Below the pieces are notes generated by a model, which did no database searches, had not been told where the DNA came from, and saw only the letters and a program-made list of their open reading frames with translations. DNA of 61,814 nt, filler included, from Sphingomonadaceae bacterium (GTDB taxonomy: Bacteria; Chloroflexota; UBA6077), in the NCBI GenBank assembly GCA_050261575.1. It is 4 parts of 4 records of this genome, joined end to end, with 100 filler letters (N's around TTAATTAATTAA, not from the genome) between each part and the next. Parts side by side here need not be neighbours in the genome. Positions count along the whole stretch, not along the records: positions 35,620 to 56,188 come from JBLNDL010000088.1; 3 more parts are not named here. The stretch is one strand, 5' to 3'. Positions 35,520 to 39,582 of this stretch are shown here, piece after piece (the first letter of the stretch is position 1; the number at the start of each line of letters is the position of its first letter). The position numbers and the translations under genes are program-made.

Positions 35520-35619
35520 NNNNNNNNNNNNNNNNNNNNNNNNNNNNNNNNNNNNNNNNNNNNTTAATTAATTAANNNNNNNNNNNNNNNNNNNNNNNNN
35601 NNNNNNNNNNNNNNNNNNN
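35520..35619. other. Assembly gap with artificial linker
   Basis: N44-TTAATTAATTAA-N44. Confidence 0.95.
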
Positions 35620-36237
35620 ACCCCCACGGCGTCGCCGACCAGCACGCCCACCCCCACGGCGTCGCCGACCAGCACGCCCACCTCGACGGAGACGGCGACC
35701 CCCAGCCCCACTCCCACCGAGACCGCCACACCTGCATCCGCGCCGGTGCCCACGGACACCCCCACTGCGACGGCGGAGCCCACCAACGTGGCGGTCGGCT
35801 ACATCGAGGGGATAGTGGATCTCCAGGCCCGCCGAGACGAGTCGGGGGCCATCGTTTCGGCCGGGGCGTACTGGACTGTCACCTCCAGCCACGGCACCTA
35901 CGCCCTGGTGGTGCCGCCCGGTCTCCACACGGTGACGGTATCCCGCCCGGGCTACCTCACTGCTACGAGGCAAGCCGAGGTGGGAGAGGGCAGGGGCATC
36001 CTGTTGCCGAGGCTGAAGCTGCGCTCGGGGGATCTAGTGGATGGGGGCGGTCCGGACGCCCTGGTGGACCAGGCGGACCTGGACTACCTCACGGGCTGCT
36101 TCGGGCGATGCCGCTCGCAAGGCTCCGATCCCGGCCTCGACCTGGCCGACCTGACTGATGACGGCTGTGTCGATCTCTTCGACCTGGTGGCCGTGGCCTC
36201 GAACTGGCACAGGGGGCCAGGCCTCCAGGAGTGGTGA
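35620..36237 (+). CDS. C-terminal part of a secreted protein: Pro/Thr linker, carboxypeptidase-regulatory-like and dockerin-like domains
   Basis: (TPTASPTSTP)x2 30-bp repeat; GTY.L...G..TVTVS.PGYL; GDL...VD..DL and ADL..DG.VD..DL loops. Confidence 0.7.
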   Translation, partial: TPTASPTSTPTPTASPTSTPTSTETATPSPTPTETATPASAPVPTDTPTATAEPTNVAVGYIEGIVDLQARRDESGAIVSAGAYWTVTSSHGTYALVVPPGLHTVTVSRPGYLTATRQAEVGEGRGILLPRLKLRSGDLVDGGGPDALVDQADLDYLTGCFGRCRSQGSDPGLDLADLTDDGCVDLFDLVAVASNWHRGPGLQEW

Positions 36238-36396: not shown

Positions 36397-36599
36397 CTCC
36401 TTGTTTACCCTCTCACGTCTCGATGGCCAGTGGCCTGGCTACTATAGATATCGGCAGTTCGGGCGGAATCTTTCGTCCTCGCTGGAGGCGAGACGCACGA
36501 CGCGGGAGCACAGCTCCAAGCCGTGCTCCCGCGCCCAAACACCTCGAATGTCGGGTCGGGACCGTCCGATCGCCTCCGCACCGCGGAGGTCTATATCCC

Positions 36600-36683
36600 T
36601 CAACCCTTGCCGCTACCCGATCTACCCGTCGCCAGTACCAGGACCAGAAAGATGAACAGGACGGCCACAATCGCCGTGTCCAC
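36600..36683 (-). CDS. Putative 27-aa single-pass membrane peptide
   Basis: GGGGAGG SD followed by GTG: MDTAIVAVLFIFLVLVLATGRSGSGKG*. Confidence 0.5.
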   Translation of the reverse strand: MDTAIVAVLFIFLVLVLATGRSGSGKG

Positions 36684-36703: not shown

Positions 36704-37057
36704 TCAGGATGCGGGCTGCTTGCCGGCTCGGGACCGCTCGATCGCCCTGGCCACGCTGAAGTAGTCCACGTAGCCCAGGCTCACTATCTCGTCGTCGACG
36801 AAGACGGCGGGAAGGACCACGTCGCCGTTCCGCAGCTTTTCGACCAAGTGCGGGAACTGCTGCCGCACCGGTGCCTTCGACAGGTCGTGGTAGTTCACCT
36901 GGACGCTGTCACCATACTCCCTGGACAGATACCAGGCGACGATTTGCGTAATCTCTTCCTGAGATTGTGGGGGGCCTCAACCGCTGCTGCAGAAGCGGGT
37001 GGAGGCGGCGTCGTCGAAGACGTTGACGACGTTCAGCGCTTTGCCGTTCGACTCCAT
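36704..37057 (-). CDS. Putative selenoprotein, thioredoxin-like YuzD/DUF1462-like fold, C-S-S-G-U motif
   Basis: ATG behind GAGGTAGG; in-frame TGA at 36977-36979 four codons after Cys; frame continues 90 codons; hairpin AATCTC-AGGAA-GAGATT 10 nt downstream. Confidence 0.75.
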
Positions 37058-37069
37058 CAACCTACCTCA

Positions 37070-37477
37070 TCATGTTTGCTCGCCGGACAGCCGACGGTGC
37101 TCTTTCAGCAGGCACCTGTCCTGGACCACTTCCAGGCCTGCCTGCCGGGCTCTGGCAGCGGCGACCTCGTTGATCACGCCCTCCTGCATCCAGACTGCCC
37201 AAGCCCCTGCCTGGATGGCTTCGTCGACTATGGGCGGGACGTCCTCGGACCGGCGGAAGACATCCACGACGTCGATCTTCTCCGGCACCGACTTCAGATC
37301 GGGGTAGGATCGCTCGCCCAGCACCCGGTCCACCGTGGGGTTCACCGGGATGATCCTGTAGCCCTGCCGCTGCATGTAGCTGGCCACCCTGTAGCTTGGG
37401 CGCTCCGGCTTGGGGGAAAGCCCCACCACCGCGATGGTCCGGCCCTTCTCCAGGATCCTCTTGATGCTCTCTTCCAC
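37070..37477 (-). CDS. CoA-binding protein (YccU-like)
   Basis: TIAVVGLS.KPERPSY, IIPVNP, VDVFRR and WMQEGV motifs; GTG behind GGAGG. Confidence 0.92.
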   Translation of the reverse strand: MEESIKRILEKGRTIAVVGLSPKPERPSYRVASYMQRQGYRIIPVNPTVDRVLGERSYPDLKSVPEKIDVVDVFRRSEDVPPIVDEAIQAGAWAVWMQEGVINEVAAARARQAGLEVVQDRCLLKEHRRLSGEQT

Positions 37478-37493
37478 ATCTGCCTCCAAGGAG

Positions 37494-37552
37494 TTGACAG
37501 GAGCACCCGCCAACAGTATCGTAATATACGGTAGGGGGGTATATGGTGTCAA
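37494..37552. promoter_or_regulatory. Overlapping divergent promoters with CsoR/RcnR-family-like operator
   Basis: Plus TTGACA-N17-TATCGT (37494-37522); minus TTGACA-N18-TATATT (37552-37523); ATATAC-GGTAGGGGG-GTATAT at 37524-37544. Confidence 0.7.
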
Positions 37553-37791: not shown

Positions 37792-37975
37792 CCCGAGCCG
37801 CTGCGATCCCCGACAGTGCCCGGAGGGGGTCTGCGCCGTGCGCCGACTCTGCGCTGTGCGCGCCATCTATCAGGAGGGGCCCTTCGAGATGCCGCTCCTC
37901 GACTGGGGGCGCTGTCGGGCCTGCTCCAAGTGCGTGGAAGCCTGTCCTGCCAGGGCGATATCTCTGGTAAACTAG
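37772..37975 (+). CDS. 4Fe-4S ferredoxin-like protein
   Basis: C-x4-C-x4-C-x5-C and CRACSKCVEACP motifs. Confidence 0.85.
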   Translation: MPKALLDPSRCDPRQCPEGVCAVRRLCAVRAIYQEGPFEMPLLDWGRCRACSKCVEACPARAISLVN

Positions 37976-38046
37976 CTGCGCCTCGAACCCCTACCGGACT
38001 ACAGTGCGTCCACTCCTTCGGGAGTGGGCAGGAGGAACGGACTGCG

Positions 38047-38991
38047 ATGGAAGAGTACGACGTGGTGATAATCGGGGGCGGCCCCGCAGGTCTCACCGCC
38101 GGGCTGTACGCTGCCAGGGCCAAGATGAAAGCGGTATTGCTGGAGCGAAAGTGGCCCGGAGGGCAGTTGCTGAATACCGAGAAGATCGAGGACTATCCGG
38201 GCTTCGAGAGCGTATCGGGGCCGGAGCTGGCCGAGCGGATGGAGAAGCAGGCCCGGAAGCTGGGGTTGCGGATCGACATGGAGGAGGCCACCGCCATCAA
38301 GCCTCGGGGGAGCCGGAAGCTGGTCCAGACAGCAAGTGGGGAGGAGTACCTGGCCAAGGCGGTCATCGTCACCGCTGGAGGCGAGCCCCGCAAGCTGGGG
38401 GTCCCTGGCGAGGCGGAACTCGCAGGACGCGGTGTCTCCTACTGCGCCATCTGCGATGGGGCCTTCTTCCAGGACCAGGTGGTGGCCGTGGTCGGGGGTG
38501 GCGACGCGGCGGTGGAGGAGGGGATGTTCCTCACCCGCTTCGCCAGCAAGGTGTACATCGTCCACCGCCGATCGGAGCTTCGGGCATCTCGGGATCTTCA
38601 GGAGAAGGCGAGGAGCAACCCGAAGATCGAGTTCGTACTGAACGCGGTGGTGGAGCAGATCCACGGCACCGACCAGGTGGAGTACCTGACGATCCTCCGC
38701 GACGGCCAGCGGGAGCGGCTGGACGTCTCGGGCGTCTTCATCTTCGTGGGCTTCGTGCCCAACACCGAGCTGTTCCACGAGCCGGTGAAGCGCGATAGCC
38801 AGGGCCATCTGGTCACCGACGCCCACATGAAGACATCCATCGAGGGGATCTTCGCGGCGGGGGACGTGAGGTCGCAGCTCACCCGGCAGATCACCACGGC
38901 CGTGGGCGACGGGACGACGGCCGCCATCGCGGCCCAGCACTACATAGAGTCGTTGACCGAGGAGCAGGAGGCAGCCCAGCCGGTGGCGTAG
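38047..38991 (+). CDS. trxB: Thioredoxin-disulfide reductase
   Basis: IIGGGPAGLTA, GVSYCAICDG, GGGDAA.EE and FAAGDV motifs. Confidence 0.95.
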   Translation: MEEYDVVIIGGGPAGLTAGLYAARAKMKAVLLERKWPGGQLLNTEKIEDYPGFESVSGPELAERMEKQARKLGLRIDMEEATAIKPRGSRKLVQTASGEEYLAKAVIVTAGGEPRKLGVPGEAELAGRGVSYCAICDGAFFQDQVVAVVGGGDAAVEEGMFLTRFASKVYIVHRRSELRASRDLQEKARSNPKIEFVLNAVVEQIHGTDQVEYLTILRDGQRERLDVSGVFIFVGFVPNTELFHEPVKRDSQGHLVTDAHMKTSIEGIFAAGDVRSQLTRQITTAVGDGTTAAIAAQHYIESLTEEQEAAQPVA

Positions 38992-39162: not shown

Positions 39163-39582
39163 ATGGAGGCGAGAGTCACATTAGCCCGGGGCCTGCACTT
39201 CGACGTCGTGCTGAAGGACTCGGGCTACCGGCTCGAGATCGATACCGCACCGGAGCACGGTGGCACGGCGCCGGGGGCCAGGCCGATGGAGCTGGTGCTG
39301 GGCGGGCTGGCCGGCTGCACGGCCTTCGACGTGGTTTCCATACTGAGGAAGGCGCGGCAGGAGGTCACCGGCTTCGACGTGATAGCCAACGGCGAGCGGG
39401 CGACCGAGGATCCCAAGGTGTACACACACATCACCGTGGAGTACGTGGTGCGCGGGCACAACATCTCCGAGGAGGTGCTGCGCCGAGCCATTCTGCTTTC
39501 CGAGGAGAAGTACTGCTCGGTGGCGGCCATGCTGTCGAAGACGGCCCGCATCGAGACCCGCTACCGCATCATCGAGGAGTAG
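39163..39582 (+). CDS. OsmC/YhfA family protein
   Basis: RPMEL...LAGCT..DV and S.EKYCSV motifs. Confidence 0.92.
   Translation: MEARVTLARGLHFDVVLKDSGYRLEIDTAPEHGGTAPGARPMELVLGGLAGCTAFDVVSILRKARQEVTGFDVIANGERATEDPKVYTHITVEYVVRGHNISEEVLRRAILLSEEKYCSVAAMLSKTARIETRYRIIEE

Follow-up and report, generated by a model that had tools for sequence, protein, structure and literature searches.

Three kinds of described proteins come closest to the gene reported here. Members of DUF1462/YuzD (a domain of unknown function, DUF; PF07315, 1xg8), a name given in Firmicutes, have about 110 residues and carry a redox-type pair of residues before helix 1. ArsD (PF06953, NF033727, 3kgk), whose As(III) site consists of three cysteines, has a V-F-D strand, a Cys-bearing, Gly-rich loop ending in C/U-G, and L-P before strand 3. 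Thioredoxin-fold selenoproteins of bacteria (Trx, Grx, Prx-like, SelW-like and the Thioredoxin_3 forms 'Sec.1/Sec.2'; PMC9312934 and the accessible part of PMC13188914) pair selenocysteine (Sec) with a Cys close by, at the N-terminus of helix 1, have Cys homologues, and contain the selenocysteine insertion sequence (SECIS) inside the coding region. The gene under study is located at 36704-37057 on the minus strand of the window, that is, the whole stretch of 61,814 nt that was analysed, composed of several contigs of one assembly (GCA_050261575.1) joined by N spacers. It shares features with all three kinds, and it most probably encodes a genuine selenoprotein (probability about 0.85), with a DUF1462/ArsD-like thioredoxin fold and the pair Cys23 and Sec27 in the motif C-S-S-G-U-G-P.

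The gene resembles DUF1462/YuzD in passing the family cut-off, in its best solved fold, in its length and in the position of the pair, but differs from it in having Sec in place of the second Cys, three residues between the pair instead of two, linkage to a very small Sec gene and to a thioredoxin reductase gene, and occurrence in Chloroflexota. It is similar to ArsD in the fold, the strand, the loop and the L-P named above; in contrast to ArsD, it scores below both cut-offs of that family, has two and not three of the ligand positions, and lacks ars genes at its locus. A true ArsD-like gene, L064, was recovered in the Chloroflexota scan described below, and its loop reads C-C-S-T-G-V-C-G-P. 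The catalogued thioredoxin-fold selenoproteins, as far as listed in the accessible part of the sources, show UxxC, CxxU, CxU or UxC and belong to other Pfam families, whereas the pair here is spaced C-x3-U, and sister groups also have C-U and C-x4-U.

The frame is located on contig G000:C88 of a genome of 3.72 Mb in 103 contigs with 65% G+C. It comprises 117 codons and a stop, from the ATG at 37055-37057 to the terminal TGA at 36704-36706, and contains a single in-frame TGA, codon 27 (36977-36979), assigned as the Sec codon on TGA/Cys conservation and bridging contigs. A Shine-Dalgarno-like sequence, GAGGTAGG (37061-37068, minus strand, by direct reading of the sequence), precedes the ATG, with GAGG at 37065-37068, 8 nt before it. 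The open reading frame (ORF) list for the locus contains only 36704-36898 (minus strand), 64 amino acids from a GTG, and public records call the gene as a fragment of 64-82 residues; bacterial selenoproteins are systematically mis-annotated, and the present gene is an instance. The initial annotation of this DNA had already reported the Shine-Dalgarno sequence and ATG (37057) opening a 117-codon read-through frame, the ORF track limited to the last 64 residues, and a 6-bp hairpin with a G-containing loop 10 nt after the UGA (36950-36966, minus strand), all of which are present as described. Its interpretation as a Sec-containing thioredoxin-fold protein is supported by conservation, the SECIS, the Sec machinery and the structural model, and the C-x-x-x-U spacing that it noted is real and matched by C-x-x-x-C in Cys relatives. 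In bridging contigs from runs of other studies (X3 record 1, X5 record 9 and X7 record 15) the TGA was unchanged and the sole variant near it was a synonymous third base in codon 28; an assembly error is thus excluded, as is the misread TGC or TGT that the same annotation had considered.

Further orthologous loci were obtained from scans of species-representative genomes and metagenome contigs. The loci L029-L032 duplicated L025-L028, and duplicates were dropped before counting. TGA at the position of codon 27 is shared by all 16 orthologous loci, which represent 15 distinct DNAs; it lies within the motif C-x-x-G-U-G-P-x-Q-S-Q-E-E-I-T, and the protein identities are 57-79%. The N-terminal 26 residues, upstream of the TGA, were also conserved, nine of them being invariant among the orthologues (N9, V10, V11, V13, F14, D15, D16, C23 and G26). 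When the single protein was searched against 41 related genomes, five were matched (its own and all four of the same family), each with exactly one TGA inside the match; this search found the gene in none of the 36 genomes outside the window's own family, beyond which the later profile search reached. One candidate locus, L034 (Saprospiraceae), was discarded as spurious, with 37% identity over 61 residues, stops and no motif. In another, L052, the motif region was out of frame or cut off.

A profile scan of 401 Chloroflexota genomes located 24 places, spread over 23 genomes, with a single TGA in 16 of them. Three other Chloroflexota groups share the TGA site, at 13 further places, with spacings of C-U, C-x3-U or C-x4-U: L048-L050, with C-x3-G-U-G-P; L053-L059, seven genomes of about 6 Mb with C-x-Y-G-U-G-P; and L063, L065 and L067, three single-contig genomes of 1.7-1.8 Mb with C-U-G-P or C-T-S-G-U-S-P. 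At least five Chloroflexota families have the putative Sec form, and the protein family shows a thioredoxin-fold Cys/Sec pair tolerating from 0 to 4 intervening residues in an ArsD-like loop. Carriers include complete genomes, of one to three contigs and with very low contamination, so that experiments may be possible if cultured strains are among them. The distant relatives L063, L065 and L067 may be Sec-containing ArsD-like proteins. In L068 (G228:C145), a second copy in its genome, a TGA is located just upstream of the matched part, in the Cys-rich stretch S-C-G-TGA-G-S-S-C-G-P-S-C-G-S-D-C, and this paralogue may be another Sec form.

In a profile search of 1.84 billion representative sequences, 93 hits were obtained at an expectation value (E) of 0.001 or lower. 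More than half (53 of 93) were shorter than 100 amino acids, and the five of these that were inspected start just after the Sec site, as expected of truncated gene calls. Of the 40 full-length hits, 20 were taken into an alignment (A3). In each of the 16 Cys-form relatives among them, the Sec column holds Cys and the next residue is Gly, with pairs such as C-x2-C, C-x3-C and C-x4-C. The other four of the 20 are written with W at that column; their genomic counterparts read TGA, and the genomic TGA of L048-L050 explains these W forms. The prediction of the initial annotation that homologues would have TGA or Cys at codon 27, with conservation on both sides, was therefore borne out, except in a single database protein, P0002, with Arg-Arg, which is considered below.

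The first hairpin, a candidate SECIS element (36950-36966, minus strand; stem 36961-36966 with 36950-36955, loop 36956-36960), reads AAUCUC-AGGAA-GAGAUU, a 6-bp stem with a 5-nt loop beginning 10 nt past the UGA; its last loop base varies between A and G among orthologues (loop AGGAR). The five codons that form the stem and the loop G's (CAA, TCT, CAG, GAG and ATT) were invariant in 13 of 13 sequences, a count without L036 and L037, which hardly differ from L035, and without L044, which is truncated by the end of its contig. Codon invariance held for all five stem codons versus 4 of 30 other degenerate columns with an invariant amino acid (Fisher p = 3.9e-4, which overstates the difference because the sequences are related). 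Three of the five are rare codons, their usage within their own amino acid in the genome being 15% (CAA), 6.6% (TCT) and 7.1% (ATT).

Among subfamilies the stem sequence differs and its position is constant (GGUCUC/GAGAUC, GCCUUC/GAAGGU, GCCCUC/GAGGGC and AAUCGUC/GACGAUU). In an ungapped alignment of 27 sequences across subfamilies, 81.3% of the cells pair, versus 32-46% with slid partners. Six of seven pairs change on both sides, and the covariation score was reached by 0 of 500 shuffles; three rows of the L063 type, 3 nt out of register, were counted as unpaired. The bacterial SECIS (bSECIS) model of PMC13188914 (Fig. 2, in its accessible part) has a loop of 3-9 nt with a G among its first two positions, a stem of 4-16 bp, a UGA-to-loop distance of 16-37 nt and, according to the same source, a minimum free energy of -7.5 kcal/mol or lower. 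The hairpin agrees with that model in loop (5 nt), stem (6 bp) and loop G (position 2), and its UGA-to-loop spacing of 16 nt is the lower limit. Its support is comparative, not thermodynamic. A search of the whole window against Rfam at gathering thresholds gave no matches.

The complete Sec machinery is encoded in the genome of origin, as the initial annotation had anticipated for a selenoprotein: tRNA-Sec (73.5 bits), selB (331), selA (595) and selD (353.7) were all above their cut-offs. The selD gene (G000:C65:2949-3887) itself contains one TGA, in S-C-A-G-U-A-G-K, with GGU before the UGA, as is the case for UGA-27, and a similar small hairpin 11-12 nt after it. In addition, selA was present in all five genomes representing the five families with TGA forms. 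The fixed TGA, the conservation on both sides of it, the hairpin and this machinery lead together to the selenoprotein reading.

The read-through protein matched Pfam DUF1462 (PF07315) with 36.1 bits against a cut-off of 25, over residues 20-107 of 117, so that the match spans the TGA. ArsD was the second Pfam match (PF06953, 21.7 bits, cut-off 27) and the only NCBIfam match (NF033727, 19.6 bits, cut-off 90), below the cut-off in both cases. DUF1462 was also the best match (E of 0.01 or lower) in 17 of 20 relatives, seven of these 17 scoring above the cut-off. An AlphaFold2 model from a 13-row alignment (mean predicted local distance difference test, pLDDT, 82.6; predicted template modelling score, pTM, 0.75) shows a strand at residues 9-15, a loop at 16-32, a helix at 33-51, a strand at 52-58, helices at 62-76, strands at 84-87 and 90-94, and a helix at 99-112. 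Foldseek against the Protein Data Bank (PDB) placed first 1xg8 (Staphylococcus aureus SA0789; E 1.4e-5; template modelling (TM) scores 0.64/0.69), which we take to be a member of PF07315, followed by many thioredoxins and by ArsD 3kgk (TM 0.56/0.65). The YuzD/DUF1462-like fold first suggested for this gene is in accordance with both the profile and the solved structure. All 24 aligned relatives share P83 and G95, and L82 is nearly invariant; by topology of the model, L82-P83 probably occupies the place of the cis-proline loop of the thioredoxin fold. The protein has C-S-S-G-U, with three residues between Cys and Sec, and not the N-terminal C-x-x-C that the initial annotation ascribed to YuzD/DUF1462. 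The loop of the DUF1462 Sec family is as close to ArsD as to YuzD.

Such a family is absent from the published selenoprotein lists examined, in agreement with its first description as uncatalogued as far as the accessible parts of these sources extend. Among the 87 selenoprotein families of Table 1 in PMC9312934, neither DUF1462, YuzD or ArsD nor a C-x3-U motif appears. The accessible part of PMC13188914 (2026) contains no PF07315, PF06953, NF033727, ArsD or YuzD. Likewise, no DUF1462-type family occurs in the accessible parts of Table 3 of deep-Sep (PMC12013277), a study with nine new families, or of the preprint of Haft (10.1101/2022.07.06.499078), nor in the main text and supplement of BSepDB (PMC13326102), whose 111-family Table S2 lay outside the comparison and may bear on novelty. 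In the literature searched, DUF1462 occurred in one paper unrelated to selenium (PMC3091736), and a search for YuzD gave only unrelated papers; neither this protein nor the small one described below has a specific model in NCBIfam release 20.0. The family belongs with the thioredoxin-fold bacterial selenoproteins, and the selenopeptide is the less expected part. A DUF1462/ArsD-like family is in none of the tables examined, which list from 87 to more than 100 prokaryotic families; its addition would give a DUF a handle on function.

A second candidate selenoprotein gene, of 30 codons and a TAG stop, is located 20 nt downstream (36591-36683, minus strand), with its Sec codon at 36600-36602. The product begins with a short acidic segment, followed by about 17 hydrophobic residues, R/K and a Gly-rich tail ending G-U-G-I-stop. 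A hydrophobic helix followed by R/K suggests that the peptide would be tail-anchored with the tail in the cytoplasm. The tail resembles the C-terminus of animal thioredoxin reductase, G-C-U-G. The small gene was present in 13 of 13 orthologous loci examined, ending G/S-U-x-x(-x)-stop. Just 3' of its true stop codon is a second SECIS-like hairpin (36573-36589, minus strand), CCUCCGC-GGU-GCGGAGG, which begins 10 nt past the second UGA here and 10-13 nt past it across loci, is rich in G+C and has a loop starting with G; RNAalifold on 13 sequences gave 7 pairs, 4 of them with compensatory changes. The peptide had no matches in NCBIfam at E up to 10, in a search whose filters drop most hits above 0.1 and whose query had only 30 residues. 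It resembles the UXX-star C-terminal selenoproteins (NF041114, NF041211 and NF041212; accessible part of PMC13188914) in having Sec three residues from the C-terminus and the SECIS past the stop, but differs from them in matching no NCBIfam model. With 30 codons the gene is too small for any gene caller, which suggests that tail-anchored selenopeptides are an overlooked class. A G+C-rich inverted repeat 3' of the small gene (36500-36535, minus strand) looks like a terminator closing the operon.

In the sister loci L048-L050 the 30-residue peptide was not found, and an FmdB-family zinc-ribbon gene (TIGR02605, 62.2 bits; L048:1030-1350 in L048) is located directly upstream of the DUF1462-type selenoprotein gene. 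The FmdB proteins of these loci end C-x-P-x(2-3)-G-G-G-U-G-F/I-stop, with a hairpin of their own, in contrast to the UxxU motif of the FmdB selenoproteins (TIGR02605) in the table of PMC13188914, in its accessible part. A G-U-G-x-COOH arm thus accompanies a C-x(n)-U protein in two architectures, carried either by the small peptide or by an FmdB protein.

A CoA_binding_2 gene (PF13380, 153.6 bits; 37070-37552, minus strand) ends 12 nt before the ATG of the selenoprotein gene and is therefore probably the first gene of the operon. It immediately preceded the selenoprotein gene in 11 of the 14 distinct orthologous loci, was not found in L041 and L042, and in L039 the upstream sequence comprised only 75 nt. 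A divergent gene for thioredoxin-disulfide reductase follows on the plus strand (37816-38991; TIGR01292, 373.5 bits, cut-off 343.45); its family match begins at residue 81 of the ORF, so the true start is probably later. Thioredoxin reductases above the same cut-off are located downstream in L033 (358.5 bits) and L048 (356.2 bits), and the gene thus stands beside the selenoprotein gene in three different arrangements (the window, L033 and L048). A gene of the thioredoxin reductase family was found within the available flanks of 10 of 14 orthologous loci, and also in L048 and L049. A second, divergent thioredoxin reductase-like flavoprotein gene, after the small Sec gene, was observed at L032:4601-5548 and L035:3478-4386; its products score 229-235 bits with TIGR01292, below the cut-off, and are 31-33% identical to the thioredoxin reductase of the window. 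Downstream of the latter, an OsmC-family protein is encoded at 39163-39582 (plus strand; PF02566, 64.9 bits; NF008009, 105.8 bits, below the cut-off of 138). OsmC matches by tblastn appeared in 10 rows of loci, 8 of them distinct, and OsmC, thioredoxin and DUF302 genes recur nearby. No ars, mer or transporter genes were found in five annotated orthologous loci. The initial annotation, right on the gene itself, had overlooked the small Sec gene next to it, its linkage to a thioredoxin reductase gene and the closeness of the loop to ArsD.

According to the mechanism proposed, SelB with Sec-tRNA(Sec), recruited by the hairpin 10 nt downstream, would meet the ribosome at UGA-27, selenocysteine would be inserted at that codon, and translation would run on to codon 117. 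The product would be a thioredoxin-fold member of DUF1462 (YuzD/SA0789), in which an ArsD-like loop between strand 1 and helix 1 would carry Cys23 and Sec27. From the linked thioredoxin reductase, OsmC and CoA-binding genes a redox relay may be inferred. In the subfamily of the window, the odds lean slightly towards a redoxin whose Cys23 and Sec27 are recharged by thioredoxin reductase and which works with the Sec arm. The pair would cycle between the selenol/thiol and selenenylsulfide states, the linked reductase recharging it, and the client or partner would be the co-transcribed 30-residue peptide, whose Gly-rich tail would present G-U-G-I-COOH. Both products could act together as a two-selenol relay on the surface of the membrane, where they would plausibly reduce peroxide or disulfides/diselenides. 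We propose only tentatively, with the odds against it, that this constitutes an undescribed two-gene module, in which a tail-anchored selenopeptide with a flexible Gly-rich arm would exchange a Se-Se or Se-S bond with a dedicated C-x3-U redoxin, which the thioredoxin reductase would recharge. If true, the mobile Sec arm of animal thioredoxin reductase would have in this module a bacterial analogue, split and located at the membrane surface, and the same arm would have been grafted onto an FmdB zinc-ribbon protein in sister lineages. Recoding signals, family, fold, conservation and gene linkage are observed here; the chemistry, the partner and the topology are the conjectural part.

Several observations weigh against the reading given above, and those on function come first. 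The argument for redox chemistry is drawn solely from the gene neighbourhood, the f41 group lacks conserved redox neighbours, and the confidence of the model is lowest in the Cys/Sec loop (residues 21-30, mean pLDDT 57). The ArsD-like loop, together with the carrier genes beside two members of the L063 group, points to metalloid binding: L063 is flanked by an SBF/ACR3-type carrier gene on one side and an ArsP_1 permease gene on the other, and L067 has an SBF gene as a neighbour (the scan covered L063 and L067 of the three-member group). The selenoprotein might accordingly be an ArsD-like chaperone for a metal, a metalloid or selenium, in place of a cycling redoxin, in which Cys23 and Sec27, and perhaps also the Sec tail of the peptide, would bind a soft ion such as As(III) or Hg(II) and pass it on. 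This is a possible but doubtful function, which would agree with ArsD as the second Pfam and only NCBIfam match and with the similarity to 3kgk, with the Cys-rich relatives P0020 and P0043, which have ArsD-like clusters, and with the view that, in small selenoproteins of bacteria, a number of Sec sites may serve as ligands of metals (PMC13188914, in its accessible part). On the other hand, both ArsD scores are below their cut-offs; of the three ligand positions of ArsD, the protein has only two (C23 and U27, with F22 before C23); the five annotated orthologous loci are devoid of ars, mer and transporter genes; and the recurrent neighbour is a thioredoxin reductase. The Cys23/Sec27 redoxin is the function preferred for the subfamily of the window.

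Concerning the recoding, hairpin 1 alone is weak, with -4.2 to -5.0 kcal/mol versus the -7.5 kcal/mol of the bSECIS model in the accessible part of its source; a 50-nt fold reaches -8.5 kcal/mol via a poorly conserved lower stem, and an 86-nt fold of the region was no better than shuffles (z = 0.85). In addition, the stem is invariant within the orthologues, so that the covariation stems only from the comparison between subfamilies, and the structure tested was derived from the same sequences. This weakness, as well as the gene callers' giving only the C-terminal part, would agree with a TGA that is a true stop, in a decayed gene or in one that yields a 26-residue peptide and/or a C-terminal part of 64-90 residues. 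That is very improbable, since one codon is fixed in all the orthologues and in three further groups, with purifying conservation on both sides, the family and fold matches span the TGA, Cys takes its place in relatives, and a product begun past the TGA would be without strand 1 and the Cys loop.

The remaining observation is P0002 (122 amino acids, 65% identical), which has Arg-Arg where the genomic copies have Gly-TGA; it is the only full-length database relative within the orthologue group and is known from the protein record alone. Together with the four relatives written with W at the site, this single R would fit reading of the UGA by a near-cognate tRNA (Trp, Cys or Arg) or a reassigned code, with selenium uninvolved. 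We give this hardly any credence, as the W forms correspond to genomic TGA in genomes with selA, and leaky read-through needs neither a conserved, covarying hairpin at the SECIS distance nor a complete Sec pathway. Reassignment of TGA to Trp or Gly was rejected, since TGA terminates both the selenoprotein gene and the gene upstream of it.

The part of the window that precedes contig G000:C88 is separated from it by an N spacer with a ttaattaattaa linker (35520-35619), which shows that the contigs were concatenated, so genes across it are not linked. The start of the contig (35620-35690) consists of a 30-nt unit in two exact head-to-tail copies followed by a diverged third copy, and near these repeats an ORF with a CarboxypepD_reg domain was observed at 35746-36237 (plus strand).

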